Virus record (IMG/VR): IMGVR_UViG_3300015608_004971
DNA: 64,000 nucleotides
Reading direction: 5' to 3' (one strand)
Source: a virus
Taxonomy: Duplodnaviria; Caudoviricetes
Shown here: piece by piece, positions 23,023-61,906 of the stretch
How positions within the stretch are numbered: the stretch's first letter is position 1
Layout of the letters: every line of letters begins with the position of its first letter
The notes under the pieces: generated by a model
The model's input: only the letters and a program-made list of their open reading frames with translations
Told to the model about the DNA's origin: nothing
Databases searched by the model: none
Position numbers and translations under genes: made by a program

Positions 23023-23619
23023 ATGAATGAATTGACTTTAAAAATTATTGCCGAGCTTAAGGCATTGGCCGTCGACGGCCTTTCCATTGACATTTCGGAG
23101 AAAACAGACGGATCGGTTTCGGTTGTTTTTCACCAATCTTCGGAAGAGATCGATCTTGATCCGCCGACAGAAATTAATTGTTTTGGCTCCAAATATTGGA
23201 AGGATAAAGACGGACTGCTCCACCGCGACGGTGATTTGCCTGCCGCTATTTATGCTGATGGTAGCAAATATTATTATAAGAACGGAAATTGCCATCGCGA
23301 CGGTGATTTGCCTGCCATTGAACATGCTGATGGCACCAAATGTTATTATAAGAACGGAAATTGCCATCGCGACGGTGATTTGCCTGCCATTGAACATGCT
23401 GATGGCACCAAATGTTATTATAAGAACGGAAAATGCCATCGTGACGGCGATTTGCCAGCAATTGAATATGCTAATGGCGAAAGAGATTATTATAAAAATG
23501 GCAAGCCTCACCGCGACGGCAATAAGCCTGCGATTATCAGAAAAAATCGATATGAATATTGCCTTGATGGAAAGCTTATTTTGATTGTGAAGCATAAGAA
23601 TGGCGTTGTCGAGATTTAA
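23023..23619 (+). CDS. HRDGDLPA-repeat protein (5 repeats; altered N-terminus, no promoter of its own)
   Basis: 3' half nearly identical to 50397..51008; contains a tandem 72-nt duplication. Confidence 0.9.
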   Translation: MNELTLKIIAELKALAVDGLSIDISEKTDGSVSVVFHQSSEEIDLDPPTEINCFGSKYWKDKDGLLHRDGDLPAAIYADGSKYYYKNGNCHRDGDLPAIEHADGTKCYYKNGNCHRDGDLPAIEHADGTKCYYKNGKCHRDGDLPAIEYANGERDYYKNGKPHRDGNKPAIIRKNRYEYCLDGKLILIVKHKNGVVEI

Positions 23620-23653
23620 GCATGGTCAAAAAAGGCCCAAGCGAAGAAGAGGC

Positions 23654-23716
23654 TTGACAGCCAGCGCCAGCCGTGCTATCATGCTTCGAGCAACACAGCG
23701 GCAACGATAAAGCCGC
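23654..23716 (+). promoter_or_regulatory. repeated promoter plus leader hairpin, copy 5
   Basis: Identical block; lies upstream of 23756 and the MoxR gene. Confidence 0.9.
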
Positions 23717-23755
23717 AACAATGTAGCAAAATGCTGCGAAGAAGAGAGAGGAACA

Positions 23756-24133
23756 ATGTCGGATTCAATTTTTTCGGATTTGAGTAAATCAGTCGCAGAA
23801 TCACTTAAGGGACGGAACGGTGAAGTTCTTGATTCTCTTAAGAAGAAAATGGTTGAAGAAGTACTTGCAAAGCGAGTTACTATTCTCTCTTGGGCCTTTT
23901 CAAGGCGAAAAGAATTAGATGGAAAGTCGCGATCCCTTCAGGAAGGTGATATTAAGCATTTTGATGCTAATGGCGTTGTTGTTTCGTCTCTGTTCTCAAA
24001 GGAACGTCTTGAGAATAAGAAGCAAGCCGAACAAGAGCTAAAGAAATTTGATGAAGCCCTCGATAAGGCTATGAATGAGGCCAATTGGGATTCTTTGGAA
24101 AAGCTTATACCAAATGGTGGCGCTAAGCAATAA
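23756..24133 (+). CDS. hypothetical helical protein
   Basis: 125-aa ORF, SD GAGG. Confidence 0.75.
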   Translation: MSDSIFSDLSKSVAESLKGRNGEVLDSLKKKMVEEVLAKRVTILSWAFSRRKELDGKSRSLQEGDIKHFDANGVVVSSLFSKERLENKKQAEQELKKFDEALDKAMNEANWDSLEKLIPNGGAKQ

Positions 24134-24136
24134 AAA

Positions 24137-24165
24137 TTTATCAAACAAACGGTTTGTTTGATAAA
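24137..24165. repeat. 29-bp palindrome
   Basis: TTTATCAAACAAAC-G-GTTTGTTTGATAAA, perfect 14-bp arms. Confidence 0.9.
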
Positions 24166-24226
24166 GATAAGTTTGTAGCGGGTATTGCCGCATTTTTATC
24201 TAAAACACTTTTCAAGGTGAAATAGA

Positions 24227-25399
24227 ATGATTACTTTTGATACGTTTATTAGAATCGCTCCAGCTATTATGGAGCAGCGTTTGCCAATTCTTCTTCGTGG
24301 TCGTCACGGTATCGGCAAATCTGAAGTTGTGCGACAAATTGCAAAAAATGCTGGCTTGAATTATATTTCACGTCGTATCTCTCAAATGACAGAAGGCGAT
24401 TTGATTGGTTTGCCTATTGTTGATGGTGATTCGACAAAGTGGCTGCCACCTGATTGGTTTATGCAAGCATGTCAAAAGCCTTGCCTTCTATTTCTTGACG
24501 AAGTGGATCGTGGCTCAATCGAGGTTCGTCAAGCTGTATTTGAGCTAAACGATAGCCGTTGTCTCAATGGTTTTCATCTCCATAAGGATACTGTTGTGTT
24601 TGCCGCAGTAAATGGCGGTAAACATGGCGAAAACTATCAAGTAGGAACAATGGATCCTGCTGAACTTGATCGTTATGCCGTTTTTGATCTTGAGCCAGAC
24701 GAAGCTGATTGGCTTCGTTGGGCAAAAATGGATAATGAAGAAACTGGAAGACAGAATATTCATCCTCTGATTGTATCTTATATTGATAAGCATCACAAAT
24801 CTCTTGAACATCGCGGAGATGTTGAGCCCGGAAAAGTTTATCCTTCTCGTCGTTCTTGGAAAAGATTGAGTGATGTTGTAACTGGCGCATCCATGCTAGA
24901 TAATGGTGGAAGCAATTTGCTATCTCATGCCGCAACAGCATTTATTGGTCTGACGATTGCAACCGAATTTGCTGATTTTATTAAAAATTATAAGATCATG
25001 ATTTCGCCAGAGGATATTTTGACAGGCAAAGCTCTTAAACTTCTGGAAGCTTTGAAGAAAAAGGGCGAATCTTTGCCAGATTCTGAGCAGATGGCGACGA
25101 TGGAAAGATTCATCGACAATCTCCAGATTATGGACGACAATAATATTGATAAATATTTGGTTAATAACCAAAAAACTTTTTCCAACGTAGGAAACTTCTT
25201 TTCAACTTTCTCTTCAGAAAAAATCGTGGCCTTGATCTCAAAGGTTGCTGCTGCAACGCAAAAGAATACAAACCTCAAGAAGAAGGCGCCAGATATTCTG
25301 CAAAAGCTTCTTAATGCCGAGTTTGAAATCGTTGATGCGGCAGGAAACAAAGTGAAGTCTTCACTACAGAAGACAAATTCAAAGAATTTGAGAATTTAA
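24227..25399 (+). CDS. MoxR-like AAA+ ATPase
   Basis: GRHGIGKS, DLIGLP, LFLDEVDR, AAVN, MDPAELDR, PSRRSW. Confidence 0.9.
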   Translation: MITFDTFIRIAPAIMEQRLPILLRGRHGIGKSEVVRQIAKNAGLNYISRRISQMTEGDLIGLPIVDGDSTKWLPPDWFMQACQKPCLLFLDEVDRGSIEVRQAVFELNDSRCLNGFHLHKDTVVFAAVNGGKHGENYQVGTMDPAELDRYAVFDLEPDEADWLRWAKMDNEETGRQNIHPLIVSYIDKHHKSLEHRGDVEPGKVYPSRRSWKRLSDVVTGASMLDNGGSNLLSHAATAFIGLTIATEFADFIKNYKIMISPEDILTGKALKLLEALKKKGESLPDSEQMATMERFIDNLQIMDDNNIDKYLVNNQKTFSNVGNFFSTFSSEKIVALISKVAAATQKNTNLKKKAPDILQKLLNAEFEIVDAAGNKVKSSLQKTNSKNLRI

Positions 25400-25518
25400 T
25401 AGTTCTCCATAAATTTCTGATCGAAATTACAGAATAAAATTGTTAATTTCAAATACAGTGTTCATGAATGATTAATAGATTCCTTTCTGCATTTGGAATT
25501 AAAATTAAATGCAGCAAA

Positions 25519-25599
25519 ATCGGCATGGTGGAATGGTAGACACAACGCACTTAAAATGCGTCGATTAATATCGTGCGAGTTCAAGTCTCGCTGCCGATA
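25519..25599 (+). tRNA. tRNA-Leu(TAA), CCA not encoded
   Basis: ATCGGCA/TGCCGAT-A acceptor, ACGCA-CTTAAAA-TGCGT, long variable arm, GCGAG-TTCAAGT-CTCGC. Confidence 0.93.
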
Positions 25600-26890
25600 C
25601 TAAAACGAAGGAAACGATTGTCATGAGACAATGCCCAAAATATGAAGATTATAGACTAGAAGATCTTCTTGTAAAAGAACATAAAAAAGATACAGAGATT
25701 TTAATCAAAAAAGGCAAAGAACACCCTTTCAATCAGGGTGAAATTTCTCTCTCATTAGAGCAACTAAAAGAGATTTATTTAATAGCCGAGAAGTATCATA
25801 GAAATGATAATCAAAAGATTGAGATCCGTCTTTATAACGGAGGATTTGCTTTTAAAATTTTAAGACATACAATTTCACATGAAATGAAATATCACAAAAG
25901 ATACGATGAAATTCTCTATCAAAAAGATATTTCCGAATGGCAAAAAGAAAAAGAAGCAGAGAATGCTCTCAAATGAAAGACGGAATCATATTCGCTAGAG
26001 AACATATTTTAATGGAACAGATTTTATCCATTATTAGACAAAAATATAAATATGAGCTCTTTATATGGCATTATTATATAATAGTGCCATATCGTCCACT
26101 ATCATTGTTAAACGACGAATTGCCAACATCAGCAATAAAATTATGAGAATAGATGATAAACTTGCAGTAACAGTTTATCCAGATGGTTGTTCAAAAACTT
26201 TCAGCCATTATACTGATGCAATTAAATATTTTTTACATACTCAAGGAATAAAAACAAATGAATGTTGAATATTTTTTAGTTCTTGTCGATAAACGAATGA
26301 CAGATCACCCAAATGAAAGAAAAGGACAAGCTGCTTTTAATTTATTGTGTTTTGATATTGGTCGGGACGATCTTGCTGATTTGGTCCGCTCTACAAAATA
26401 TGATCCATTTTTTGATAATGCAAGAATGGACGATTTCATTCATTTCCTTGTTGAAAAAAACTTCCTATTTCGTCAGTAATAGAATCTGCAACATGAATAT
26501 TATACAAAAATTATCAACACCTTATATTAGACAAGAAATTGTAAAGCGAGTAGATAAAGTTAATTATCTATCATTAGATGCTTCTAATATGAAAATTGCA
26601 CAAAATGTATCTTCTTGGAAGCGCAATTCGAAGCAAAAATTGAAAAACGCCATAAATGATTATGGTGTCTCTTCAGTCCAAGAATTTTTGGAATGTGGCG
26701 ATGAAACAGAATTGTTTTGCAAACCCAATAGTATTACAGAGAAATGTATTGTTCGTCATTTTGTAATTGCTGATTTGACTTTGGATTGTACCTGCATTAC
26801 AGACGAGACAGACCAAAATATTTTAGTTTTCATTTGGCATCAAGATTAATTAGAAATACTCACAGACATATATCGCAATGGAGTTAATTA

Positions 26891-28144
26891 ATGATTGTCA
26901 ATTGTAGAATTATGTCTATGCGCAGACATGGCAAAATTGCTTTTGCTCAATTTAAGGAATTTTCCAATCACAATAATACTGCTTCAATTACTCAAGCAGT
27001 TTTTATGAAGCAAAATCTTGAAGACTATGATTTGATTTTGTCTTCATTAAAGATTGGTTGTATAGTAACACTTAGGGGTGAAGAATATGTAACTTCTACA
27101 GGTGTTCTCTCTTTGAGCGTTGTGAAGTGCGATATAACTTACATTCCAAATGTTGGATTTCCAACAGAACATTTTGGGATTGAAAATGAAAATCTTAAAA
27201 GACGTCATAGGTTTCTAAGTTGTCTTTATAATGACAGTGTAAAGACAACTTTTTTGAAGAGATTTGAAATTATTAATAACATTAGACAATTTTTAATTTC
27301 AAATTCTTTCATTGAATTTGAAACTCCAATTATGTCTTCACATGCTTCAGGAGCTCTTGCAAAGCCTTTTGTTACACACTACAACGCATATGAAACAGAT
27401 TTTTATCTTAGAATTGCGCCAGAAACTTTTCTAAAGAGAATTTTGGCAGGTGGTTTTGATAACATTTTTGAAATTGGAAAAAACTTTCGTAATGAAGGAG
27501 TAGATCCATCTCATTTGCAAGAATTTACTGTTGTTGAATGGTATAGCGCTTTCAAAAATTATAAAGACAATCTTGAATTATTCAAGTCTATGTTAGACTT
27601 TTTGATTAAAGATAAAATTGTTACATTTGAAAATGTTCAACTTGATTTTTCTAATTGTCAAACTCTGACTTATAGAGAATGTTTTGAAAAGTATGCGCCA
27701 GATTTTGATCCATTTTGTAAAGAGAATAGTGAAAAATCTGTTGATCTTGTTTTCAAGACAAGAATTAGACCAAATATTGTACAGCCCACTTTTGTAATCG
27801 ATTATCCGTCTTTTATGTCTCCAATGGCTAAGAGATCTGATCAAGATGAAAATATTTGTGAGCAATGGCAATTTATAGTCAATGGATGGGAAATCGTTAA
27901 GTGTTACACTGAACTTGTTGATGCTACTCTTCAAAGACAGCTTCTTGAAGAGCAAATGCAACAAAAGATTAAAGCGAATAACGCAGATGATGAATTTATG
28001 GAATTAGAAGAAGACTTTCTATATACAATGGAATATGGAATTCCGCAATCCTCTGGCGTAGGCGTGGGTATCGATAGACTAGTTGCAATCTTGACGAACA
28101 ACTCATCTTTGAGAGATGTTGTATTTTTTCCTGCTGTTCTATGA
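26891..28144 (+). CDS. lysS: class II lysyl-tRNA synthetase (compact)
   Basis: RRHGKIAF OB fold, EFETP, GALAKPF.TH, YLRIAPE, FRNEG, H..EFT, YGIP...G.G.GIDRL. Confidence 0.92.
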   Translation: MIVNCRIMSMRRHGKIAFAQFKEFSNHNNTASITQAVFMKQNLEDYDLILSSLKIGCIVTLRGEEYVTSTGVLSLSVVKCDITYIPNVGFPTEHFGIENENLKRRHRFLSCLYNDSVKTTFLKRFEIINNIRQFLISNSFIEFETPIMSSHASGALAKPFVTHYNAYETDFYLRIAPETFLKRILAGGFDNIFEIGKNFRNEGVDPSHLQEFTVVEWYSAFKNYKDNLELFKSMLDFLIKDKIVTFENVQLDFSNCQTLTYRECFEKYAPDFDPFCKENSEKSVDLVFKTRIRPNIVQPTFVIDYPSFMSPMAKRSDQDENICEQWQFIVNGWEIVKCYTELVDATLQRQLLEEQMQQKIKANNADDEFMELEEDFLYTMEYGIPQSSGVGVGIDRLVAILTNNSSLRDVVFFPAVL

Positions 28145-28626
28145 TAACATGTGTATTGCGCTTTGTTCTATAGTTATAATTTAATCCTCAACAAACAAAG
28201 GAAAAACAATGAAGTAATTAGACTTTGTTGTATGACTTCAAAACAAAGAATTCAAAAAATCAGATATTTTTCAGATTAAAGAGAGTATTTTGATATGAAT
28301 ATTTTTCTTTTAAAAAGAAAGAATTTAATCAGACAAACTGAAGAAGAAAAATTAAATTTTAAAAAATTTAAATTTGTTTGTGTTTCTGTTATTGTTTATG
28401 CTGAAAATGAACAAAACGCAAGAAAAATTGCGGCAAAACCTGCACCAAAATTTGGTAAAAAGGTAAGAGTCGATAATACAATTGACAATTCTTATTCTTG
28501 GTGTTATGACACAGAAAGCAAAATTTGGTTAGATCATTTACAAACTGATTGTTTGTTAACAACAAAAATAGAGTCTAAGATTGAAAAAGTTCAAAGTAGA
28601 AATTTTATTGAAATTGGTGTTAAGTA

Positions 28627-30503: not shown

Positions 30504-30525
30504 TAATAAATAATTATGTTGTAAA

Positions 30526-34643: not shown

Positions 34644-34706
34644 TTGACAGCCAGCGCCAGCCGTGCTATCATGCTTTGAGCAACACAGCGGCAACGATAA
34701 AGCCGC
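34644..34706 (+). promoter_or_regulatory. repeated promoter plus leader hairpin, copy 6
   Basis: Identical block. Confidence 0.9.
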
Positions 34707-34722
34707 AGCAAGGAATCAGCAA

Positions 34723-35184
34723 ATGAGCAGCCAAAACGAAACAATCCTTAAGCTCGTTGCCGAGCTTAAAGCATCAGCAATTGACGGAATTTCAATTAAC
34801 GTTTCGGAGAAGCCGGATGGATCGGTTTCGGTCGTTTTCTGCCGACCTTCGGCAGAAAACGTTCTTGATCCGCCGACAGAAATCGATTGTGTTGGTAACA
34901 AATTTTGGAAGAATAAAGGCGGATTGCGCCATCGTGACGGTGATTTGCCTGCCGTTATTTATGCTGATGGCAGCAAAGTTTATTATAAGAACGGAAAGCT
35001 TCATCGTGACGGTGATTTGCCTGCCTTTGAACATGCTGATGGCACCAAATATTATTATAAGAACGACCTTTTTCACCGCGACGGCGGAAAGCCTGCCGTG
35101 ATTAGCCAATATAAATACCAATATTGGCTTGACGGAAAGCTTATTTTGACCGTGAACCATAAGAATGGTGTTGTCGAGATTTAG
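34723..35184 (+). CDS. HRDGDLPA-repeat protein (3 repeats)
   Basis: ATG 34723 after AAGGA; conserved N-domain and C-cap. Confidence 0.9.
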   Translation: MSSQNETILKLVAELKASAIDGISINVSEKPDGSVSVVFCRPSAENVLDPPTEIDCVGNKFWKNKGGLRHRDGDLPAVIYADGSKVYYKNGKLHRDGDLPAFEHADGTKYYYKNDLFHRDGGKPAVISQYKYQYWLDGKLILTVNHKNGVVEI

Positions 35185-35210
35185 GCAAAGCACCACTAAG
35201 GGAAAGAAAA

Positions 35211-35489
35211 ATGACCACACCCAATAATATTGTTGCGCCGACACAATCAGAAATCAGTGATAATGATCCGCCGACAGAAATCGATCATTTTGGCAATAAA
35301 TGTTGGAAGAATGAAGAAGGGAATCTTCATCGCGATGGTGATCTGCCCGCTATTGAATGGGCAAGCGGTCTCAAATATTATTATAAGGAAGGAAAGCTTC
35401 ATCGCGACGATGGGAAGCCTGCAATTGAATATGCCGATGGATCTGTAGAATTTTGGGAAAATGGAATCAAGCAGCCAGAAAGAATTTAA
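35211..35489 (+). CDS. short HRDGDLPA-repeat protein (2 repeats, different termini)
   Basis: Shares DPPTEID junction DNA and repeats with the family. Confidence 0.85.
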   Translation: MTTPNNIVAPTQSEISDNDPPTEIDHFGNKCWKNEEGNLHRDGDLPAIEWASGLKYYYKEGKLHRDDGKPAIEYADGSVEFWENGIKQPERI

Positions 35490-45611: not shown

Positions 45612-46136
45612 ATGAATGATTCAATTCTGAAGCTCGTCAACGAGCTTAAAGCTTCGGCAAATAACGGCCTTTCCATCGACATTTCGGAAAAGCCGGACGG
45701 ATCTGTTTCGGTTGTTTTTCGCCAGCCTTTGGCAGAAAACGATCTTGATCCGCCGACAGAAATCGATTGTTTTGGCAACAAATACTGGAAAAATAAAAAA
45801 GGAAAGTTTCATCGCGACGGCGATTTGCCTGCCGTTATTTATGTCGATGGAAACAAAGATTATTATAAAGAAGGAAAACTTCACCGCGACGGTGATAAGC
45901 CTGCCATTGAATTTGGCAATGGCAGCAAAGTATATTATAAGAACGGAAAGCTTCATCGTGACGGTGATTTGCCTGCCTTTGAACATGCTGATGGCGATAG
46001 AAAATTTTATAAAGATGGAAAACTTCATCGCGAGGGCAATAAGCCAGCAATTATCACAAAAGATAAGTATGAATATTGGATTGATGGAAAACACATTTTG
46101 ACCGTCAAGCATAATGATGGTGTTGTTGAGATTTAA
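45612..46136 (+). CDS. HRDGDLPA-repeat protein (4 repeats; no promoter block)
   Basis: Family N-domain and C-cap. Confidence 0.9.
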   Translation: MNDSILKLVNELKASANNGLSIDISEKPDGSVSVVFRQPLAENDLDPPTEIDCFGNKYWKNKKGKFHRDGDLPAVIYVDGNKDYYKEGKLHRDGDKPAIEFGNGSKVYYKNGKLHRDGDLPAFEHADGDRKFYKDGKLHREGNKPAIITKDKYEYWIDGKHILTVKHNDGVVEI

Positions 46137-49248: not shown

Positions 49249-49249
49249 A

Positions 49250-50315: not shown

Positions 50316-50378
50316 TTGACAGCCAGCGCCAGCCGTGCTATCATGCTTCAAGCAACGCAGCGGCAACCTTAAAGCCGC
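50316..50378 (+). promoter_or_regulatory. repeated promoter plus leader hairpin, copy 7
   Basis: Identical block. Confidence 0.9.
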
Positions 50379-50396
50379 AGCAATAAGGAACAACAA

Positions 50397-51008
50397 ATGA
50401 GCAGCAGCAACAAAAACGAAACAATCCTGAAGCTCGTTGCCGAGCTTAAGGAATCGGAAATTGACGGAATTTCAATTAACATTTCGGAGAGGCCGGACGG
50501 ATCGGTTTCGGTTGTTTTCCGACAGCCTTCGGAAGAGATCGATCTTGATCCGCCGACAGAAATTAATTGTTTTGGCTCCAAATATTGGAAGGATAAAGAA
50601 GGAAAGCTTCACCGCGACGGCGATCTGCCTGCCGTTATTTATGCTGATGGCAGCAAATTTTATTATAAGAACGGAAATTGCCATCGCGACGGTGATTTGC
50701 CTGCCGCTATTTATGCTGATGGTAGCAAATGTTATTATAAGAACGGAAAATGCCATCGTGACGGCGATTTGCCAGCAATTGAATATGCTAATGGCGAAAG
50801 AGATTATTATAAAAATGGCAAGCCTCACCGCGACGGCGATTTGCCAGCAATTGAATATGCTAATGGCGAAAGAGATTATTATAAAAATGGCAAGCCTCAC
50901 CGCGACGGCAATAAGCCTGCGATTATCAGAAAAAATCGATATGAATATTGCCTTGATGGAAAGCTTATTTTGATTGTGAAGCATAAGAATGGCGTTGTTG
51001 AAATTTAA
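50397..51008 (+). CDS. HRDGDLPA-repeat protein (5 repeats)
   Basis: Tandem duplication of the AIEYANGERDYYKNGKP unit. Confidence 0.9.
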   Translation: MSSSNKNETILKLVAELKESEIDGISINISERPDGSVSVVFRQPSEEIDLDPPTEINCFGSKYWKDKEGKLHRDGDLPAVIYADGSKFYYKNGNCHRDGDLPAAIYADGSKCYYKNGKCHRDGDLPAIEYANGERDYYKNGKPHRDGDLPAIEYANGERDYYKNGKPHRDGNKPAIIRKNRYEYCLDGKLILIVKHKNGVVEI

Positions 51009-52112: not shown

Positions 52113-52188
52113 CTTTTAAACGGTTTAATTGATTAAGCAATAGTGGTGCTCTTATTTGAAGAATGCGATTCTTCACGAGGAAATAAAA

Positions 52189-53343: not shown

Positions 53344-53398
53344 TAAAACTTAATAATAACGCTGAATAAGCACGGCTGGCGCTGGTTTATGTCGCACC

Positions 53399-53465
53399 TT
53401 GACAGCCAGCGCCAGCCGTGCTATTATGCTTCAAGCAACGCAGGCAGCGGCAACGATAAAGCCGC
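53399..53465 (+). promoter_or_regulatory. repeated promoter plus leader hairpin, copy 8
   Basis: TTGACA, same spacer, TATTAT. Confidence 0.9.
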
Positions 53466-53481
53466 AGCAAGGAATCAACAA

Positions 53482-54159
53482 ATGAGCAACAAAAACGAAA
53501 CAATTTTGAAGCTCGTTGCCGAGCTTAAGGCATCGGCAATTGATGGCCTTTCCATCGACATTTCGGAGAAGCCGGACGGATCTGTTTCTGTTATCTTTCG
53601 CCAGCCTTCGGCAGAAAACGATCTTGATCTGCCGACCGAAATTGATTGCAATGGCCATAAACTTTGGAAGAATAAAGACGGGCAGATTCACCGCGACGGT
53701 GATTTGCCAGCCATTGAATATGCCGATGGGGAAAAGAGATATTATAAAGACGGACAGCTTCATCGCGACGGTGATCTTCCTGCCGTTGAATCCACTAATG
53801 GCCAAAAAGAGTATTATAAAAATGGAAAGCGCCATCGCGACGGTGATTTGCCTGCCATTGAACATGCTGATGGCGTCAAATATTATTATAAAAACGGCCA
53901 TATCCATCGCGATGACGATCTGCCTGCTGTTGAATTGATTGATGGAACCAAAAAGTTCCTTAAAGATGGAAAGTTGCATCGCGAGGGCGATAAGCCTGCC
54001 ATTATATGGGCAGATGGCAGCAAAGTTTATTTTAAAAATGGCAAATATCATCGTGACGGAGATCTGCCTGCCGTTATCAAAAAAGATAAATATGAATATT
54101 GGGTCGACGGCAAGCACATTTTAACCGTCAATCATAATGATGGCGTTATCGAGATTTAA
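53482..54159 (+). CDS. HRDGDLPA-repeat protein (6 repeats)
   Basis: ATG 53482 after AAGGA; 5' part nearly identical to 61436. Confidence 0.9.
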   Translation: MSNKNETILKLVAELKASAIDGLSIDISEKPDGSVSVIFRQPSAENDLDLPTEIDCNGHKLWKNKDGQIHRDGDLPAIEYADGEKRYYKDGQLHRDGDLPAVESTNGQKEYYKNGKRHRDGDLPAIEHADGVKYYYKNGHIHRDDDLPAVELIDGTKKFLKDGKLHREGDKPAIIWADGSKVYFKNGKYHRDGDLPAVIKKDKYEYWVDGKHILTVNHNDGVIEI

Positions 54160-54186
54160 TAAAACATATTTGAAGGAAATAAAAGA

Positions 54187-55581
54187 ATGAGCACAACAAC
54201 TACGAATAATAATTTGCCAGAACAACAAGACGAAGAACTATTGGATTTGCCAGTAGTTGATCCAGAAGATTATAAGGGAAAAATTCCTTTTGAAGATTTT
54301 TCTTCAAAATTTGTGAAAGAAGGCGATTTTGATTTGGATGAAAGAGCTTTTAAACTTTTTGCAACTGATTCGGTTGGCGAGAATTATGCTTTCGTAAAGC
54401 ATGTGTTCAATTCAATTACTCGTCGTCCAACTTATGCTATTCCAACGGCAGGAGTCAGAATGAATCCTGTAACGTTGCAATATGAGCTTTTTTATAATCC
54501 AAAATTTCTTATGGCTGTTAACTTTCAAACAGTTAAAGGGATTATTATTCACGAAATTTATCATATCATTCTGGAGCATTGTGATAATAGAGCACCAGAT
54601 GATCCAGAATGGGCTAAGGTATACAATATCGCAATGGATCTTGCAATTAATTCGATGATCGAAAAGAATCTGTTGCCAGATAAAATTCTAAACGAAAAAG
54701 GTGAAGTTGAACCTTTTAGCCTTTGTATTCCCGGCGAAGGAACTTATGCGCATTTGCCAACACATAAAGCGACAGAATGGTATCTGAAAAAGATTATGGA
54801 TGATTCAAAGAAAGGAAAGATGAATCCTTCTGGTATGGGCGGCCAATTTGACGATCATGATGGTTTTGGTGAAGGAGATGAAGAAGGTGGAAATATGGAT
54901 TCTGCTCGCGCAGTTGCGAAGCAGAAGATGAAATCTGCAATTGAAAAGGCAACCGAGCAAGCGATCAAAACCAATTCCTGGGGCAATATGTCTCGTGATT
55001 TGAAGCAAGAACTGATCGCGAGACTCCAAACTCGCGTCGATTGGAAATCTTTGCTCAAATTCTTTATCGGTCGTGCGCAGCGATCCGATCGCTATTCAAC
55101 ACATAGAAAGATCAATAAGCGCTTCCCTTATATTTTGCCAGGAAAACGTTATCATCGCCACGCAAATATTGCGATCTCAATCGATCAATCTGGTTCTGTG
55201 GATGATAATATGCTTATTTTGTTCTTTTCGGAGCTGAATAAACTTGCAGAGATTGCAACGTTTACCGTCGTTCCATTTGATACAGAAGTTAATCCAGAGT
55301 TGTGTTATGAATGGAAGAAAGGAACACGTCATAAAGTTGAACGTGTTAAGTGTGGCGGAACTGATTTTGATGCTCCAACAAAATATGTAAATGAGCAATC
55401 AAAATTTGATGGACATATCATTTGCACAGATATGTGCGCATCAAAGCCAATTTCCTCAAAGGTTCCTAGAATTTGGATGACAACCGAAGAGTGCAAGAAG
55501 CATATGCCATTTCAAACATCTGAAATGGTTTTGGAAGTTTCGACTCGCGAGCTTGAAAAACTTCAAAATAAAATAAATTAA
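54187..55581 (+). CDS. metallopeptidase-VWA protein (DUF2201-like, MoxR partner)
   Basis: PTAGV, HEIYH, NIAMDLAIN, DDH, MIDAS DQSGS, GGTDF, TD. Confidence 0.9.
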   Translation: MSTTTTNNNLPEQQDEELLDLPVVDPEDYKGKIPFEDFSSKFVKEGDFDLDERAFKLFATDSVGENYAFVKHVFNSITRRPTYAIPTAGVRMNPVTLQYELFYNPKFLMAVNFQTVKGIIIHEIYHIILEHCDNRAPDDPEWAKVYNIAMDLAINSMIEKNLLPDKILNEKGEVEPFSLCIPGEGTYAHLPTHKATEWYLKKIMDDSKKGKMNPSGMGGQFDDHDGFGEGDEEGGNMDSARAVAKQKMKSAIEKATEQAIKTNSWGNMSRDLKQELIARLQTRVDWKSLLKFFIGRAQRSDRYSTHRKINKRFPYILPGKRYHRHANIAISIDQSGSVDDNMLILFFSELNKLAEIATFTVVPFDTEVNPELCYEWKKGTRHKVERVKCGGTDFDAPTKYVNEQSKFDGHIICTDMCASKPISSKVPRIWMTTEECKKHMPFQTSEMVLEVSTRELEKLQNKIN

Positions 55582-55614
55582 CAAAAAATATTCCAAACAA
55601 TTAAATAACAAATT

Positions 55615-55649
55615 GGCACAGCAGAGTTTCTGCTATGCCTTTTTGTTTT
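55615..55649 (+). terminator. intrinsic terminator
   Basis: GGCAcAGCAGA-gtt-TCTGCTaTGCC followed by T tract. Confidence 0.75.
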
Positions 55650-55660
55650 AGGAGTGAAAT

Positions 55661-57001: not shown

Positions 57002-57518
57002 AATGGTTTTTAATATTGTCACAACTTTTTATCTGGTGCCTTATGAAAAATCTTCCTGATATGCTCAAAAGAAATACAAAATTTGTATATACAAAATATA
57101 AATATGAAAATAAGATATTTTTAATAAAATTTAGAGGTTTAAGTTGGTTTAATTTTGAGACAAATATATTCTTGATGAGTCTTTTTAATTTTATCTTATT
57201 TGCCCTAACAGGCTCAACAATAAGTCTCATAACTGCATTCTTTTTAATGATAATATCGCTTATTGCGGAAAACACTTCAAGAAAAACAATGTCAACAACA
57301 GAGTCAAGCAAATATCACAAAAATTTTGATATTGGCGATATTGTACATTTTAACGACCTCGGGCATTTTATGATTTTGACAAAGACGAAAGTAAAAAATG
57401 GAATGGAATTTTCTGTCATTCATCTTGAAAGTGAAAATTCTCCTTATAAAATTTTTTATGGTATGGACGCTTTTAAAAATTATATTAATTCTAGCATTTC
57501 TGATAATGCTGAAGAATG

Positions 57519-57653
57519 ATAATTAAATTAAGCCACCTAGCTTGCCCTGTGGCTGGCGCTTCCAATAAAGCCGTGCATCGCATGGCTAAGCGACAGAATG
57601 CCAGCCGCAGGCCAAGCCAGACGCTTGCAAAGCCACGGCAAGCGTGCTAATAT
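57519..57653 (+). repeat. 129-bp structured repeat, copy B, ending in promoter TTGCAA-17-TAATAT
   Basis: Matches 37432..37560; -35 at 57625, -10 at 57648. Confidence 0.9.
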
Positions 57654-57696
57654 ATGACAGCTTGGTCATAATGGCCTTCGTGGAGATCTTTCGAAG

Positions 57697-58635
57697 ATGT
57701 CAGAGGAAAACATCATCTATCACAAAACCGATCCTGAGCGTCTCAACAAGATTATTGAAGATGCTCGCGAAAAACGAGCAAACCTATATTTTAATACTGT
57801 TGTTGATCAGCCGGTTATTTCTTTTGCCAAAGAAGTTATTCGTGCTGGCAGAACCCTTCGAGAAAAACTAAAAATTCATACAAAGAGAAAAATCAAATCA
57901 TGTACCATTTCCTTTAGAAGAGGCCAATGGGATAGAACCTTTGAAGAAGCATTGAATGTTTTGCTAAGAGAGAAATTTATTCTTCAATCAATTCAGGTTG
58001 AATTTGGAAATATTGTAAAGGACGAATTAAATATTGAACGCATAATCATTGATGAAGAGCCATGGCCAGAGGATGAAATTGAAGCAAAAATCAATTTTAA
58101 AACTTTGGGAGTCAAGCTCGGCAAAGAAATGAAAACTTTTCAGCAGATGCTTAAATTGTCATCACAAGATGATTTGAAGAAATTGAGAAACGAATTCAAC
58201 GAAAATGGATTCATTGAATTCAATAGCCTTCATATTGAATATGGTGATGTTGAATTTGTTGCAAAAAAATCTCAAAAGCTTTCTGAAAACGAAATGTATT
58301 TTGCAGAAAATGTAAAAATTACATACGATCTAGGTCTATCGCCATCAATTATCTCTAGTACCTTCATCAGAGAGGTTACAGCAGAAACTTCAGCAAGAAG
58401 AAAAAAGAAAGGACTATCATATGATGTAGTTGTAGATGTGGTCATCTATTCAAATGATCAAGAGTTTTGCAATATCATTAACGATAATATTGCTTTTGTC
58501 AATAAAGAAACAGGCTCAAATATCTTTGTAATTTTTGATGAAAATCTACAAAAAGATGATGAACAAGATGTCCTAATCGAATTTGGCCAAGAACATCCAG
58601 ATATTTTGTTTCGTGTATTGGTGAAGCATGATTAA
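57697..58635 (+). CDS. stand-alone homolog of the C-terminal region of type-2 isoleucyl-tRNA synthetase
   Basis: GR.LR...KI..., VKDELNI, KINFKTLGVKLGKEMK, REV......RK..GL; no HIGH or KMSKS. Confidence 0.7.
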   Translation: MSEENIIYHKTDPERLNKIIEDAREKRANLYFNTVVDQPVISFAKEVIRAGRTLREKLKIHTKRKIKSCTISFRRGQWDRTFEEALNVLLREKFILQSIQVEFGNIVKDELNIERIIIDEEPWPEDEIEAKINFKTLGVKLGKEMKTFQQMLKLSSQDDLKKLRNEFNENGFIEFNSLHIEYGDVEFVAKKSQKLSENEMYFAENVKITYDLGLSPSIISSTFIREVTAETSARRKKKGLSYDVVVDVVIYSNDQEFCNIINDNIAFVNKETGSNIFVIFDENLQKDDEQDVLIEFGQEHPDILFRVLVKHD

Positions 58636-58831
58636 TTTCTTATATATTGATAACTTATATCTCTGGCAAGCAAGAGGAGCCACACAGAGATCCGATGGAA
58701 AATGCGGTACATTTGAAACATATTATAAATATGATTTTCGTAAAAATTTTGCATATTTTTACGAAAATAAGCCCTTCATTAAGGCAAATTTAAAGATGTC
58801 AAAGGAATATGCGCATAATGATATCATATAA
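58628..58831 (+). CDS. RxDG mini-gene family member (solo)
   Basis: MINF...RSDG...NDII-stop. Confidence 0.75.
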   Translation: MINFLYIDNLYLWQARGATQRSDGKCGTFETYYKYDFRKNFAYFYENKPFIKANLKMSKEYAHNDII

Positions 58832-58902
58832 AATACATTATAACTGTCATGATAGATATTATCTAAAAATAAACTGTAGTCGGTCAATAGACTTTGCGTG
58901 AC

Positions 58903-58961
58903 TTGACAGGCTGCGTCGGCCATGCTATTATTCGGTTGTGACGCAGCCACTTTATTGCTGC
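58903..58961 (+). promoter_or_regulatory. variant sigma70 promoter with leader hairpin
   Basis: TTGACA-17-TATTAT, then GCAGC-cactttatt-GCTGC. Confidence 0.8.
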
Positions 58962-58977
58962 AACGAGTTCAAAAAGA

Positions 58978-59265
58978 ATGAGTGAGATTTTTAAAAAATT
59001 CCAAGAAGAAAGAGAAAAATCGCTTATTGAAAGAAATAAGCGGTGGCCGTCTGGGGCGCCGGTTAGAATTCTTAACGTTGGCCGTCATGCTCACTCTGGC
59101 AGAACAGGAAAGATTATTCTTTATGAAGAATTGAAAGAAGAAGAAAGAAAATGGTATTGGACTAGGTACGATTTGCTTGTCGCTTTTGATACTTACACTG
59201 ATGAGGAGTATAAATATTGCTTCTTTTTTGAGAACGAACTTGAGCGTCTAACTATTGACAAATAG
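58978..59265 (+). CDS. hypothetical protein (possible SH3/KOW-like)
   Basis: G..V.I...G...GRTG.I pattern. Confidence 0.55.
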   Translation: MSEIFKKFQEEREKSLIERNKRWPSGAPVRILNVGRHAHSGRTGKIILYEELKEEERKWYWTRYDLLVAFDTYTDEEYKYCFFFENELERLTIDK

Positions 59266-59296
59266 CTTGTCATCTTAAACCTCCCAATAAGCGAGA

Positions 59297-59722
59297 TTGA
59301 AAACGATGCAAGAATCAAGAAAGATCATTGACTTGTCAAGCAAACAACTTTCAGTCCTTGAGCTTGCAAGGAATGTTGCAAGACAATCGACTTTTGGACA
59401 ATTTCGTCATGGTGCGGTTCTTGTCTCGCATGGTAAAATTGTGAATACTGCGCACAACGAACTTCGTTTGTGCGGATTTGGCTCAAGATTTAGAGCTTTG
59501 CAAAAGGGTGTTGCGACGCTCCATGCGGAGCTTGGTTCAATTTTGAATGTTTCGTCCAAATCAACAACCGGCGCAACTGTTTTTGTTGTTAGAATTAACA
59601 AAAAAGATGAATGGCGAAATAGTAAGCCGTGTCAAATGTGTCAAGCAGCCATGCGTCACTGTGGCGTTAGTAAAGTTATTTATTCTACTGATTTTGGTCA
59701 TTTTGAAGAAATGAGACTTTAA
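59297..59722 (+). CDS. zinc-dependent cytidine/dCMP deaminase-like protein
   Basis: HGAVL, HAE, SKPCQMC. Confidence 0.88.
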   Translation: MKTMQESRKIIDLSSKQLSVLELARNVARQSTFGQFRHGAVLVSHGKIVNTAHNELRLCGFGSRFRALQKGVATLHAELGSILNVSSKSTTGATVFVVRINKKDEWRNSKPCQMCQAAMRHCGVSKVIYSTDFGHFEEMRL

Positions 59723-59723
59723 A

Positions 59724-59975
59724 ATGCTGAATGTAAAAATATTCGAATCAAAATCTTTGTATACGTCAAAAGATTATATCTATAGAGAAATTCTTTGGCG
59801 ATTAGATGGAGCTGCTTTATTCTATCGATTAGATGGAGCTTCTTTATTCTCTAAGAGCGAAAAAAGCAAAACTTATAATTCTTTTTATTATTATAAAAAT
59901 AGTTTTTCTCCAACATCACTAGAAGATATTAGAAAAAATAATATATTCAATGTTGCAAAAAATGATATTATATGA
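59724..59975 (+). CDS. RxDG mini-gene family member with duplicated RLDG
   Basis: RLDGAALFY-RLDGASLF; NDII-stop. Confidence 0.8.
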   Translation: MLNVKIFESKSLYTSKDYIYREILWRLDGAALFYRLDGASLFSKSEKSKTYNSFYYYKNSFSPTSLEDIRKNNIFNVAKNDII

Positions 59976-60178
59976 TATATTTTTATCATAAACGCGATTT
60001 TACTAGAACTTATAAACTTTTTTATGGTGGCGTTTCGACCTCAAAGGAAAGAGGTGATGGAAAGCCATTCTTCGATTCGTTAAATGCAGATTGTGTTTAT
60101 TTTTATGAAAAAGTTAGTAATTCTTTCAATAAGAAGCAGCCTCTTAAAGAGAGCGATATAATAAATGATTTTATTTAA
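59972..60178 (+). CDS. RxDG mini-gene family member
   Basis: MIYF...RGDG...DFI-stop. Confidence 0.8.
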   Translation: MIYFYHKRDFTRTYKLFYGGVSTSKERGDGKPFFDSLNADCVYFYEKVSNSFNKKQPLKESDIINDFI

Positions 60179-60368
60179 AGTAAAAAAAGATTATGCTTCC
60201 TATAATAATGGTTCCATCCACAATATTCATAGATCGGATGGCAATGCATTAATATCTTCATCGAACCAAACAAGCTTATTGTTAAATAATTCATGGACTA
60301 GAAAACATGTCTTAATAAGAATAAATCTAGAAAAATATAAATATAACTTAACGCCGGACGCTATATAG
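60165..60368 (+). CDS. RxDG mini-gene family member
   Basis: MILFK...HRSDG...DAI-stop. Confidence 0.8.
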   Translation: MILFKVKKDYASYNNGSIHNIHRSDGNALISSSNQTSLLLNNSWTRKHVLIRINLEKYKYNLTPDAI

Positions 60369-60370
60369 CA

Positions 60371-60601
60371 ATGATATCATTTAAAATAATCGAGTTATTT
60401 GGAGACAAACCATACTTCTGGGGAAAGAATCAGTCGCGTGCTTTCTTGTCTCATAGAGGCGATGGTTTTGCAAAATCTGATTCATGCCATAGCCAGGCAA
60501 TAATATATGGAAGTGTTTATATAGCTAAGCATAAACAAATAAAAGGTTACTTGAAGAAATTTAATTTAAATACAAAAAATATTAAAAATGATATATTATA
60601 A
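60371..60601 (+). CDS. RxDG mini-gene family member
   Basis: MISFK...HRGDG...DIL-stop. Confidence 0.8.
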   Translation: MISFKIIELFGDKPYFWGKNQSRAFLSHRGDGFAKSDSCHSQAIIYGSVYIAKHKQIKGYLKKFNLNTKNIKNDIL

Positions 60602-60791
60602 AATTTTTTATAAAAAGTTCATTTGGAACACAAACTTTTCTAATCTAGAGAGATTAGATGGAAAAAGTACAAAAATTCATTATTCCATAGACGACTTTTA
60701 TTGCGGCTTTAATCTTTCTTTTTATAAAGAATATCTAAAAAATTCTCATCGATTATATAAAATTAATAATCAACATAATGATAAGATATAG
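60588..60791 (+). CDS. RxDG mini-gene family member
   Basis: MIYYK...RLDG...DKI-stop. Confidence 0.8.
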   Translation: MIYYKIFYKKFIWNTNFSNLERLDGKSTKIHYSIDDFYCGFNLSFYKEYLKNSHRLYKINNQHNDKI

Positions 60792-60999
60792 AATAATTAA
60801 AAATAGTTTTATGTATTTTTATCAAGATCCGAAACTGGGCGTATGGGGTTTTTTTCAAAGAAAAGATGGCATTGCATATGATGACGATCAGTTTGAAGAA
60901 AAATATTTTTATTTTAATCGTACGACAACATTAGACAGATTATGTATAATAAATTATATGAATTACAATAATAATATTTTTCTAGAAGATACGATATGA
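60778..60999 (+). CDS. RxDG mini-gene family member
   Basis: MIRY...RKDG...DTI-stop. Confidence 0.8.
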   Translation: MIRYRIIKNSFMYFYQDPKLGVWGFFQRKDGIAYDDDQFEEKYFYFNRTTTLDRLCIINYMNYNNNIFLEDTI

Positions 61000-61211
61000 T
61001 TTTTTTTATGTATAAAAAAGGCTTGCACCATGGGTGTAATAATTATTGCATTTATTATCATTTTAAGCGGACTTATAACGCACAAAGATTTGATGGCTTT
61101 TGTAGTTCAATATATAAAACATATATAGGTTCATGTCATAAAGTTCTCTCACGCGAAAAAATGAAAACAATGAATCCAAATTTTAGAAATAAAAAAGATG
61201 ATATCATATGA
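60996..61211 (+). CDS. RxDG mini-gene family member
   Basis: MIFF...RFDG...DII-stop. Confidence 0.8.
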   Translation: MIFFMYKKGLHHGCNNYCIYYHFKRTYNAQRFDGFCSSIYKTYIGSCHKVLSREKMKTMNPNFRNKKDDII

Positions 61212-61357
61212 TTATATTTTATTCTCTTTATAAATTTCAATATTGGCGAACAACAGAAAATTATTTTCCAAATCGAAACGATGGCAACGAAAGAAGCCCA
61301 TGTAGAAGAGACCAGAGTTACTCATCAATTTCGCAACCATTATTGGCTTGCGCTTGA
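61208..61357 (+). pseudogene. truncated RxDG mini-gene (49 aa)
   Basis: MIIFY...NRNDG...; its stop TGA lies inside the TTGACA of promoter copy 9. Confidence 0.65.
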
Positions 61358-61420
61358 CAGCCAGCGCCAGCCGTGCTATCATGCTTCAAGCAACGCAGGC
61401 AGCGGCAACGATAAAGCCGC
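61354..61420 (+). promoter_or_regulatory. repeated promoter plus leader hairpin, copy 9
   Basis: Identical block. Confidence 0.9.
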
Positions 61421-61435
61421 AGCAAGGATCAGCAA

Positions 61436-61906
61436 ATGAGCAGCAGCAGCAACAAAAACGAAACAATCCTGAAGCTTGTTGCCGAGCTTAAGGCATCGGC
61501 AATTGATGGCCTTTCCATCGACATTTCGGAGAAGCCGGACGGATCTGTTTCTGTGGTTTTTCGCCAGCCTTCGGCAGAAAACGATCTTGATCTGCCGACC
61601 GAAATTGATTGCAATGGCCATAAACTTTGGAAGAATAAAGACGGGCAGATTCACCGCGACGGTGATTTGCCTGCCGTTATTTATGCTGATGGAACCAAAT
61701 CTTATTATAAGAACGGAAATTGCCATCGTGACGGTGATTTGCCTGCCATTGAATGGATTGATGGAACCAAAAAGTTCTTTAAAGATGGAAAGTTGCATCG
61801 CGACAATGGAAAGCCTGCCGTTATTTTCAAAAATAAATATGAATATTGGCTCGATGGAAAGCGCATTTTGACCGTCAAGCATAAGGATGGCATTGTTGAG
61901 ATTTAA
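61436..61906 (+). CDS. HRDGDLPA-repeat protein (3 repeats)
   Basis: Family N-domain and C-cap. Confidence 0.9.
   Translation: MSSSSNKNETILKLVAELKASAIDGLSIDISEKPDGSVSVVFRQPSAENDLDLPTEIDCNGHKLWKNKDGQIHRDGDLPAVIYADGTKSYYKNGNCHRDGDLPAIEWIDGTKKFFKDGKLHRDNGKPAVIFKNKYEYWLDGKRILTVKHKDGIVEI

Follow-up and report, generated by a model that had tools for sequence, protein, structure and literature searches.

A dispersed family of mosaic genes for predicted MORN-like repeat proteins in the early region of an uncultured phage

The analyzed window is a stretch of 64,000 nucleotides from the genome, about 199 kb in size, of an uncultured wastewater phage. It includes nine genes for related repeat proteins, designated A to H and d (Table 1). 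One more copy was found elsewhere on the same 198,888-nt contig, and the family thus has at least ten dispersed members. The seven genes listed in the original prediction were all recovered and its specific statements were all reproduced, while A and d inside the window and P0006 beyond it had been missed. All these genes belong to one multigene family, scattered over the early, hyperplastic part of the phage genome.

Table 1. Paralogs of the repeat family and promoter/leader cassettes. Positions are those of the window; Greek letters designate classes of 72-nt units.
Feature	Position	Strand	Description
Paralog A	10677..11072	+	131 aa; N-domain, unit0, 2 full units; truncated, without C-cap; own cassette
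Paralog B	17657..18055	+	132 aa; N-domain, unit0, 1 alpha unit, cap
Paralog C	23023..23619	+	198 aa; divergent N-domain, alpha-beta-beta-gamma-cap; without own cassette
Paralog D	34723..35184	+	153 aa; alpha-beta-cap; own cassette
Paralog d	35211..35489	+	92 aa; repeats only, without N-domain; directly downstream of D
Paralog E	45612..46136	+	174 aa; alpha, two unique/chimeric units, cap; without cassette
Paralog F	50397..51008	+	203 aa; alpha-alpha'-gamma-gamma-cap; own cassette
Paralog G	53482..54159	+	225 aa; 5 full units (two unique, beta, delta, one unique) and cap
Paralog H	61436..61906	+	156 aa; B/G/B patchwork, G4-like delta unit, own cap
Tenth paralog, P0006	outside window, same 198,888-nt contig		patchwork, G/C/H-like
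Cassette before A	10591..10676	+	TTGACA, 17 nt, TG-extended TATCAT, leader hairpin, AAGGA
Cassette before B	17574..17656	+	upstream arm pairs with promoter spacer; z -2.2
Two tandem cassettes	21922..22094	+	first (21922-21997) solo, without gene; second drives unrelated 89-aa gene (22095-22364)
Cassette directly past C's stop codon	23654..23755	+	drives unrelated 125-aa gene (23756-24133)
Cassette before D	34644..34722	+	
Cassette before F	50316..50396	+	upstream inverted repeat; z -2.45
Cassette before G	53399..53481	+	17-nt upstream arm (53369-53385) perfectly complementary to spacer; -57.7 kcal/mol, z -7.4
Cassette before H	61354..61435	+	

The proteins are composed of an N-domain of about 50 aa, a degenerate unit (unit0), one to five full 24-aa HRDGDLPA units, and a C-cap. 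The repeat period is exactly 24 aa, or 72 nt, in every gene. When HRD-initiated units are counted with the cap, B has 2, D and H 3, E 4, C and F 5, and G 6, in agreement with the predicted range of 2 to 6. The unit frame H-R-D-G-D-L-P-A ... G-K ... Y-Y-K-N-G is conserved, and variability is concentrated at about seven of the 24 positions. Within strands the variable positions alternate (9/11 and 15/17), the pattern expected where a single face of a sheet varies. The (AGC)n serine run varies from 1 to 4 as had been described (1 in G, 2 in A and D, 3 in F, 4 in B and H). The N-domain variants DGLSIDIS and DGISINVS do not track the 3' parts of the genes, consistent with their proposed independent assortment. 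No homolog of the N-domain was found beyond this lineage in searches of 5.8e9 and 1.84e9 proteins, and it is absent from bacteria; it is the constant, lineage-specific part of the family. The paralogs are predicted to be soluble (no 19-residue hydrophobic window above 1.34), and no signal peptide, transmembrane or catalytic part was found in them.

An AlphaFold2 model of paralog G (pLDDT 89.7, pTM 0.70) includes one helix and one hairpin in the N-domain, followed by repeats that form a single-layer, MORN-like beta-sheet. The top Foldseek match was PfMORN1 (6t4d) with probability 1.0 and an E-value of 4.6e-4, followed by junctophilin-2 and radial-spoke MORN proteins. The VIA Z-scores were 8.6 to 6t4d over 156 residues and 9.2 to the CPAP G-box (4lzf), although Z-scores of 8-9 are only middling for repeat sheets. 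The structural model and both comparisons agree with the beta-hairpin, MORN-like repeats anticipated from sequence, and the repeats are thus predicted to fold as a MORN-like beta-hairpin sheet. The proposed YwqK relationship was not borne out. YwqK is the immunity protein of the Bacillus subtilis LXG deaminase toxin YwqJ (COG2849, Pfam MORN_2). JGI automatic annotation calls several repeat homologs "YwqK antitoxin". The best score of the family against Pfam MORN_2 was 19.8 bits, below the cut-off of 29.6, and no toxin gene was found among the neighbors scanned, so the family is not a member of YwqK. The NCBIfam search of the family proteins gave no match, either.

Nine cassette copies in the window match a 34-nt word with at most one mismatch, where none is expected. 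The cassette resembles a strong sigma70 promoter with an extended -10 element, accompanied by leader and upstream hairpins. The first gene behind a near-identical cassette is a family member in six cases. Among the cassette-bearing copies, pS grows with distance from the cassette (0.23, 0.35, 0.36, 0.52), with only 9-13 synonymous sites per pair; constraint close to the start codon would be another possible cause of this gradient.

Exact tracts of 47-167 nt are shared between the paralogs, with partners alternating within genes. C and F are 77% identical in the N-domain and 98% in the cap. They have exact tracts of 112 nt and 167 nt in common, the latter together with the cap; units C4 and F3 are identical at 72 of 72 nt. 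Their tandem duplicates are different units, as the original prediction had stated along with the common 3' end: the IEHADG unit in C (C2/C3, 71/72 nt) and the IEYANGERD unit in F (F3/F4, 70/72 nt). H had been described as the 5' part of G joined to the first unit of B and an IDGTKKF unit, and the identities agree. G and H are 95% identical in the N-domain, 100% in unit0 and 79% in the cap; the first unit of H is identical to that of B in amino acids and at 68/72 nt, with a 61-nt exact tract, and its IDGTKKF unit matches G4 at 63/72 nt. Along H, nt 1-58 correspond to B, 43-236 to G, and 233-293 to B again. B shares exact tracts of 58 and 61 nt with H and 53 nt with D, and D additionally shares 47 nt with A and 63 nt with E. 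The D-E tract, which accounts for the sequence reported earlier as common to the two genes, is displaced by one unit in register, lying in D1/D2 of the one gene and in E2/E3 of the other.

The clustering of the 72-nt units and the recombination tests support exchange between paralogs, as had been proposed. The longest runs of concordant sites, analyzed in a GENECONV-like way, are significant for G-H and C-F (global permutation p <= 2e-4) and for B-D and B-H (pairwise p <= 8e-4), and the PHI test gave p = 5e-4. Synonymous divergence between C and F is 0.70 in the N-domain, 0.11 in unit0 and 0.09 in the cap, and between G and H it is 0.15, 0 and 0.43, respectively; the contrast between segments within one gene pair is about 7-fold. 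A single tree for all segments, in which unequal rates such as fast adaptive change of the C N-domain take the place of recombination, is highly improbable. The C N-domain is a long branch against all others, and AU tests on the short segments reject neither C+F on the N-domain (p 0.20) nor G+H on the cap (p 0.10), nor any other single clade (p 0.10-0.49). The case for mosaicism therefore rests on tracts, synonymous divergence and PHI. However, the C-F contrast (0.70 versus 0.09-0.11) lies in synonymous sites, partners switch within single genes, the PHI and run-length permutation tests are significant, and the D-E tract is out of register.

Only four of the approximately 15 unit types are found in more than one gene, and these shared units keep one collinear order throughout (alpha, then beta, then delta/gamma), without any permutation. 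This fits mostly in-register homologous exchange with unit duplication and deletion. Thus, of the "combinatorial shuffling" proposed originally, the exchange and the gain and loss of units stand, but free re-assortment does not. These genes evolve by short-patch ectopic gene conversion and in-register gain and loss of 72-nt units.

It is very unlikely that the mosaics are chimeras made by a short-read assembler threading between paralogs, or collapsing and expanding near-identical units. Repeat proteins are known to assemble badly from viromes (PMC9238414), the window comes from a metagenome contig, and k=31 Logan contigs break inside every paralog. The long C-F exact tracts would permit such an error. 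The exact forms of C and F were seen on the source contig only, and their unit counts are thus unconfirmed; C-type genes elsewhere (174-aa and 126-aa variants) have the contents alpha-beta-gamma, alpha-alpha'-gamma, or the C N-domain with an H-like cap. A variant of B with a D-like 5' end was also found in other assemblies. Against this, the B-like and G-like tracts of H overlap by only 16 and 4 nt at the switch points, and adjacent tracts in B and D do not overlap at all. The longest stretch shared by B and G anywhere is 26 nt, which makes a de Bruijn path switch impossible at usual k. Most switch points are not assembly chimeras because too few bases are shared. In addition, seven members recur in independent ENA/Logan assemblies from two studies, G as a longer gene call and the others exactly: identical proteins were found for A on four ENA contigs (one of 135,466 nt), B on six contigs (JGI and ENA), D on five ENA contigs, d on five contigs (JGI, Logan and ENA), E on four contigs, and H in JGI and ENA assemblies.

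The unit frame and the N-domain are under clear purifying selection, with dN/dS of 0.06-0.10 at frame codons and about 0.2-0.3 in the N-domain. The ratio of 1.6-1.8 at variable positions fits diversifying selection and relaxed constraint alike, because these positions were picked for varying. A neutral origin, in which a recombination-active phage homogenizes its repeats, the family undergoes concerted evolution and the copies are redundant or mildly selfish passengers of the cassette without a library function, is a less probable but serious explanation. The exchange tracts coincide with shared sequence (cassette and frame codons), recombination of the T4 type needs less than 50 bp of homology (PMC2839356), the truncated A and the domain-less d persist, unit order is collinear, and dN at variable positions (0.28) does not exceed dS at frame codons (0.39). 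The purifying selection speaks against it, as do the reading frames, which are open in all copies and mostly recur unchanged in independent samples. The copies also stay 15-25% diverged instead of being homogenized, and many unrelated large phages retain families of a comparable kind.

Overall, this is likely a mosaic family of MORN-like proteins, diversified by conversion and unit gain and loss, that may serve as an early panel of binders. Three kinds of shared sequence would seed the exchange: the near-identical cassette preceding six copies, the frame codons present in each unit, and the N-domain and cap, both of which are conserved. In a tentative reading, host RNA polymerase would transcribe the paralogs at the very start of infection, and their products would form an intracellular panel of putative binding proteins. 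The constant N-domain would then lend them a shared activity or address, and different targets would be selected by the variable face of the sheet. Single-layer sheets of this kind are platforms for protein and peptide binding, as in MORN4, junctophilin and CPAP-STIL. The location of family genes behind early promoters is indirect evidence for an early role inside the cell, as is the absence of signal peptides and transmembrane segments. The inhibition of host defense proteins proposed originally is a candidate function. Binding to the cell envelope, or decoration of the virion or baseplate, is improbable. MORN repeats have been reported in some phage endolysins (PMC9238414, citing its ref. 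37), and weaker structural matches to phage baseplate sheets were obtained (PhiTE 9cuy, Z 7.0; phi812, Z 5.1). However, the proteins have no part suited to catalysis, export or membrane insertion. In six cases a consensus sigma70 promoter with an extended -10 element has a family gene as its first cistron, and these copies are surrounded by genes of nucleotide metabolism and small genes of early type instead of a structural module. E, without a cassette, directly follows a NAMPT gene.

PeSLs of T4-type phages are repeated near-consensus sigma70 promoters with stem-loops before non-essential genes in plastic regions, and have been proposed as recombination linkers by which genes are inserted, deleted and shuffled (Arbiol et al. 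2010, PMC2839356; Comeau et al. 2014, PMC4122927). The nine copies, the solo cassette, and the divergence rising away from the cassette are PeSL-like, and by analogy the cassettes have probably also helped the genes to disperse over the genome. Other features differ from PeSLs. The whole 34-nt core, including the spacer, is identical between copies and rich in GC, against a genomic GC content of 32%. The hairpin that is conserved belongs to the leader and does not take the place of an upstream terminator, the upstream arms vary between copies and have no U-tracts, and most cassettes serve a single gene family.

YwqK is likewise small and soluble, is built of repeats and acts through binding to another protein, but here at least nine copies are dispersed with their own early promoters, and their N-domain has no bacterial counterpart. 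With the solved MORN structures, namely MORN1 of Plasmodium, Toxoplasma and Trypanosoma (6t4d), junctophilin-2 (7rxe, 9uo9), radial-spoke RSP1/RSP10 (7jr9, 7jtk) and the SET7/9 N-domain, the family is predicted to share an elongated single-layer antiparallel hairpin sheet, and the CPAP G-box (4lzf) is a related single-layer sheet. The period here is 24 and not 23, the signature is H-R-D-G-D-L-P-A, identity is only 14-17%, and the proteins are phage-encoded with an orphan N-domain. Repeat families of large DNA viruses, such as the MORN-repeat proteins of Marseilleviridae (PMC8208085), similarly have many paralogs per genome, 2-9 units and fixed end caps. The copies here are dispersed over more than 50 kb, most of them opening an early transcription unit, and combine a 24-aa unit and a constant N-domain with visible gene-conversion tracts.

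Translation and register-aware parsing confirmed seven paralogs (B to H in the table). Each starts with an approximately 50-aa N-domain, continues with a degenerate first unit (unit0; T-E-I-x-C-x-G-x-K-x-W) and one to five full units, and ends in a 36-aa C-terminal cap. The full units are exactly 24 aa (72 nt) long and begin with H-R-D-G-D-L-P-A. Two members overlooked in the original prediction, A and d, were found by self-BLAST and three-frame reading. The identical truncated A protein is present on four ENA contigs, and thus it represents a stable allele, not a one-off error. The tenth member, P0006, is a three-part mosaic: a G-type leader and N-terminus, a C-type middle, and an H-type cap.

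Coordinates of the repeat-protein paralogs, the promoter cassettes and the genes associated with them
Feature	Position	Strand	Remarks
Paralog A	10677-11072	+	Two full units, ends inside the third unit, no C-cap
Paralog B	17657	+	
Paralog C	23023	+	
Paralog D	34723	+	
Paralog d	35211-35489	+	Repeats only, directly downstream of D
Paralog E	45612	+	
Paralog F	50397	+	
Paralog G	53482	+	
Paralog H	61436	+	
Paralog P0006			Outside the window, on the same 198,888-nt contig
HNH-endonuclease-like gene (PHROG 1314)	54187-55581	+	Directly after G, in the same cassette-driven unit
Unrelated small gene	22095	+	Cassette-driven
Unrelated small gene	23756	+	Cassette-driven
Solo cassette without a gene	21922-22014		Includes the 23-nt linker, which runs straight into another cassette
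Second copy of the linker	23620-23653		After the stop of C, also abutting a cassette
Tenth, diverged promoter	58903-58931		TTGACA, 17 nt, TATTAT; own leader hairpin, before an unrelated small gene
tRNA-Ile(TAT)	22371-22447		Among the cassette-driven genes
tRNA-Leu(TAA)	25519-25600		Among the cassette-driven genes

The window has a GC content of 32%, and every gene is on the + strand. PHROG matches include GroEL, DNA ligase, RNA ligase, NAMPT, a CCA-adding enzyme, an HNH endonuclease and two AAA/MoxR-type ATPases, and a polynucleotide kinase and a metallophosphoesterase are also encoded. No DNA-level similarity was detected among 50,697 phage records, and the nearest relative of the GroEL shows 33% identity. 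The proteins were found in the protein database on a 198,888-nt JGI contig, and the DNA is present in wastewater metagenomes from two studies. Together, these results indicate an uncultured large phage, of which the window is the early, hyperplastic part. The two tRNAs decode AT-rich codons, matching the core-gene usage of the phage. The GC3 of the paralogs (10677-61906) is about 0.40, versus 0.18-0.20 in the core genes groEL and ligase (4555-10192), and the cassette is GC-rich; this reflects either early-gene codon usage or a foreign origin of the module.

Clustering of the 72-nt units, 24 of which are full, revealed four classes common to more than one gene (units are designated by paralog and number). 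The alpha class (V/A-I-Y-A-D-G) contains B1, C1, D1, E1, F1, F2 and H1, and the beta class (I/F-E-H-A-D-G) contains C2, C3, D2 and G3. The gamma class consists of C4 and F3, identical at 72 of 72 nt, and F4, while the delta class consists of G4 and H2 (63 of 72). Every unit outside these classes is unique. The tandem duplicates C2/C3 and F3/F4 are 1 nt and 2 nt apart, respectively, and are therefore very recent. The specific statements of the original prediction were all reproduced: the near-identical 3' part of C and F with a different tandem duplicate in each, the composite nature of H, the tract common to D and E, and the N-terminal Ser run of one to four AGC codons.

The identity between paralogs depends on the segment. 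C and F are 77% identical in the N-domain, 93% in unit0 and 98% in the cap, with dS of 0.70, 0.11 and 0.09; the corresponding values for G and H are 95%, 100% and 79%, with dS of 0.15, 0 and 0.43. The contrast lies in synonymous sites and is therefore not explicable by protein-level selection. Recombination was significant in a GENECONV-like permutation with 141 polymorphic sites (global p ≤ 2e-4 for G-H and C-F; pairwise p ≤ 8e-4 for B-D and B-H) and in the PHI test across the paralogs (p = 5e-4). When exact matches of 32 nt or more between paralogs were mapped, H proved to consist of B (nt 1-58), G (43-236) and B (233-293), then a unit resembling G4 and a cap not taken from either. B is composed of H, D and again H, and D of A, B and E, the E tract being one unit out of register. 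AU topology tests gave no significant result for segments of 108-216 nt, and tree support was poor, which limits the tree-based evidence.

The order of the common units is always collinear. Alpha precedes beta in C and D, both precede gamma in C and F, beta precedes delta in G, and alpha precedes delta in H. No permuted order was observed in any gene carrying two common classes, and most unit types occur only once. F2 is a hybrid, C1-like at its 5' side and C3-like at its 3' side, the product expected from an unequal in-register crossover. Of the combinatorial shuffling originally proposed, the recombination is upheld by the tracts, the dS values and the PHI test, but free re-assortment of units does not fit the unvarying order and the single-occurrence unit types. 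These sequence patterns fit homologous, mostly collinear gene conversion combined with whole-unit duplication and deletion. The paralogs were also considered as targets of a diversity-generating retroelement, and this was rejected: sequence changes come as patches and as whole units, without adenine bias, the majority base at variable columns covering all four bases (T 8, C 5, G 3 and A 2 in the alpha units), and no reverse transcriptase was found among the ten largest ORFs of the window. A serious rival to any library function is that the mosaicism is no more than the trace left by phage recombination in repeated sequence.

A de Bruijn assembler switches paralog solely via a common (k-1)-mer. 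Where H switches partner, B-like and G-like sequence coincides for 16 and 4 nt, neighbouring tracts in B and in D show zero overlap, and the longest stretch common to B and G is 26 nt, located in the promoter. The exact A, B, D, d, E and H proteins, together with G in the form of its longer gene call, were found again in independent ENA or Logan assemblies. Because the overlaps are too short and the proteins recur independently, the mosaics of these paralogs are real, which argues against the chimeric assembly that the original prediction had named as its possible refutation. This does not apply to C and F, whose exact window forms are found only in the source contig and which have exact tracts of 112 and 167 nt in common. 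C-type genes with other unit content are present in other assemblies, namely alpha-beta-gamma (P0005), alpha-alpha'-gamma (P0126), and alpha with a cap resembling that of H (P0009, from a 135-kb contig); these could represent genuine alleles or threading errors. In the Logan contigs (k=31), every paralog contains a contig break. The 72-nt skips in these contigs at 50759/50832 and 61740/61813 were discounted as unit-number variants, as the flanks are short or ambiguous, and the latter fits the P0006-type paralog that lies at another genomic site. Assembly from viromes strongly under-recovers MORN-repeat proteins (PMC9238414).

A near-identical sigma70 promoter cassette accompanies the family. 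Its 34-nt word occurs in nine copies with at most one mismatch, versus 0 expected, and had no match in viral or metagenome contig collections. The motif comprises TTGACA and a TG-extended TATCAT; the 17-nt spacer between them is GC-rich and fully conserved. Downstream of the motif lie a leader hairpin, conserved in seven of the nine cassettes, and an AAGGA ribosome site. Six paralogs (A, B, D, F, G and H) are the first gene behind a cassette. For the two unrelated cassette-driven genes, NCBIfam and PHROGs returned nothing informative. In the B, F and G cassettes, an upstream arm pairs with the spacer, and strong stems overlap the -35 element and the spacer (z -2.2 to -7.4). The solo cassette with its repeated 23-nt linker (A-A-A-G-C/G-C-C-C-A-A-G-C-G-A-A-G-A-A-G-A-G-G-C) resembles a scar left by a cassette-bounded deletion, insertion or transposition of a paralog. 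Identity among the cassettes is 98% in the core and 87% in the leader. The synonymous difference among cassette-bearing genes grows with the distance from the cassette (0.23, 0.35, 0.36 and 0.52, at few sites), which suggests that conversion may start in the cassette. The 5' ends of family genes vary among assemblies, as in the family members P0013 and P0006.

The MORN-like beta-hairpin fold originally proposed gained support from structure prediction. The AlphaFold2 model of G, from an 80-row alignment (pLDDT 89.7, pTM 0.70), shows an N-domain of a helix and a hairpin (pLDDT 73-80) followed by a regular hairpin array (pLDDT ≥ 95); a single-sequence model was discarded (pLDDT 48). Foldseek placed Plasmodium MORN1 first (E 4.6e-4), followed by junctophilin-2 and radial-spoke MORN proteins, and VIA gave Z 8.6 to MORN1 (6t4d, 156 residues) and Z 9.2 to the CPAP G-box. 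As in MORN proteins, the modelled repeats are stacked as an elongated single-layer antiparallel sheet, whereas the period is about 23 residues in MORN and 24 in the paralogs. At the sequence level, all paralog scores against MORN and MORN_2 (PF02493 and PF07661) were sub-threshold; the best whole-protein MORN_2 score was 19.8 bits versus the gathering cut-off of 29.6, with any match in three of the seven paralogs. Thus, the fold class is MORN-like, outside the sequence-model families. NCBIfam and PHROGs searches of the paralogs gave nothing informative, and a PDB sequence search only chance-level matches.

The YwqK-like label was not borne out. YwqK-type immunity proteins are encoded next to a cognate toxin gene of the LXG or deaminase type, and neutralise the toxin by binding. 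No toxin gene was found among the scanned neighbours of the paralogs, which encode polynucleotide kinase, metallophosphoesterase, HNH endonuclease, NAMPT or proteins without a family match, and no NCBIfam model of the YwqK/COG2849 type gave a relevant match. The YwqK name appears solely in the JGI automatic annotation of distant homologues.

The repeat module is widespread, with more than 1,697 matching proteins carrying varied N-terminal partners such as DUF7666, RING and HNH, and its closest Atlas clusters are 77-100% viral. The N-domain is confined to this phage lineage, based on a word-seeded search of 5.8e9 proteins and on 1.84e9 representatives searched in full with an HMMER profile; a pattern search of viral contigs revealed no relatives, and the Atlas search gave nothing beyond generic small alpha/beta matches. 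The most variable positions of the unit are 9, 11, 15, 17 and 24, while positions 10, 12, 16 and 18-20 are conserved together with the H-R-D-G-D-L-P-A frame. The alternation of variable positions along the modelled strands implies one putatively variable face of the sheet. The dN/dS is 0.06-0.10 for frame codons and 1.6-1.8 for variable codons; the latter were picked for their variability, and the value above 1 was therefore rejected as proof of positive selection.

The most likely putative role of the paralogs is intracellular protein binding early in infection, because they are predicted to be expressed early by the host polymerase as first cistrons, are soluble (no paralog protein has a hydrophobic segment), and adopt a binder-type fold in the model. 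The constant N-domain would give the paralogs a shared activity or address. The anti-defence target put forward in the original prediction is a guess. It is conceivable, yet rather unlikely, that the cassette and the repeat gene form a self-dispersing and self-homogenising module, providing at the population level a changing panel of MORN-like binders against variable host proteins such as defence systems. The identical cassettes would express each copy first after infection and also act as recombination handles, through which genes would be copied, moved and re-patched within and between co-infecting phages, and a single effector or address domain would stay constant across the panel.

Multigene families of small repeat proteins seem common in large phages, without experimental study, and no dedicated study of phage or jumbo-phage MORN families was found in the literature. 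The present family is useful because its evolutionary mechanism is directly readable, from conversion tracts that are exact, from unit duplications that happened very recently, and from the differing unit content of alleles in other samples. It is also linked to a particular early promoter cassette. Nature here supplies at least ten versions of a single scaffold in which the N-domain is constant; this set could reveal binding targets once the host is known, and it could test whether cassettes resembling the promoter-early stem-loops (PeSLs) of T4-type phages drive the spread of gene families beyond these phages.

MORN families are the most abundant paralogs in marseilleviruses (PMC8208085). 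Two IMG/VR phage contigs, L001 (1-8600; 211 kb) and L003 (8200-12700; 44 kb), contain tandem arrays of 7-10 MORN-like paralogs, which are of the HREDGPA type with 2-9 units and constant C-terminal tails. PeSLs, which combine a strong sigma70 promoter with stem-loops, bring about the shuffling of modules and give rise to mini-circles (PMC2839356, PMC4122927). Between related genomes, gene insertions, deletions or replacements end at such elements. The cassette likewise is a repeated near-consensus sigma70 promoter in an intergenic, plastic, early-gene region. The PeSL stem-loop terminates upstream transcription, whereas the cassette stems examined (nine copies) are all without a U-tract. PeSLs are the closest described counterpart of the cassette, and the family is distinctive in its 24-aa unit, its orphan N-domain, its dispersed copies behind PeSL-like cassettes and its unusually legible conversion tracts.
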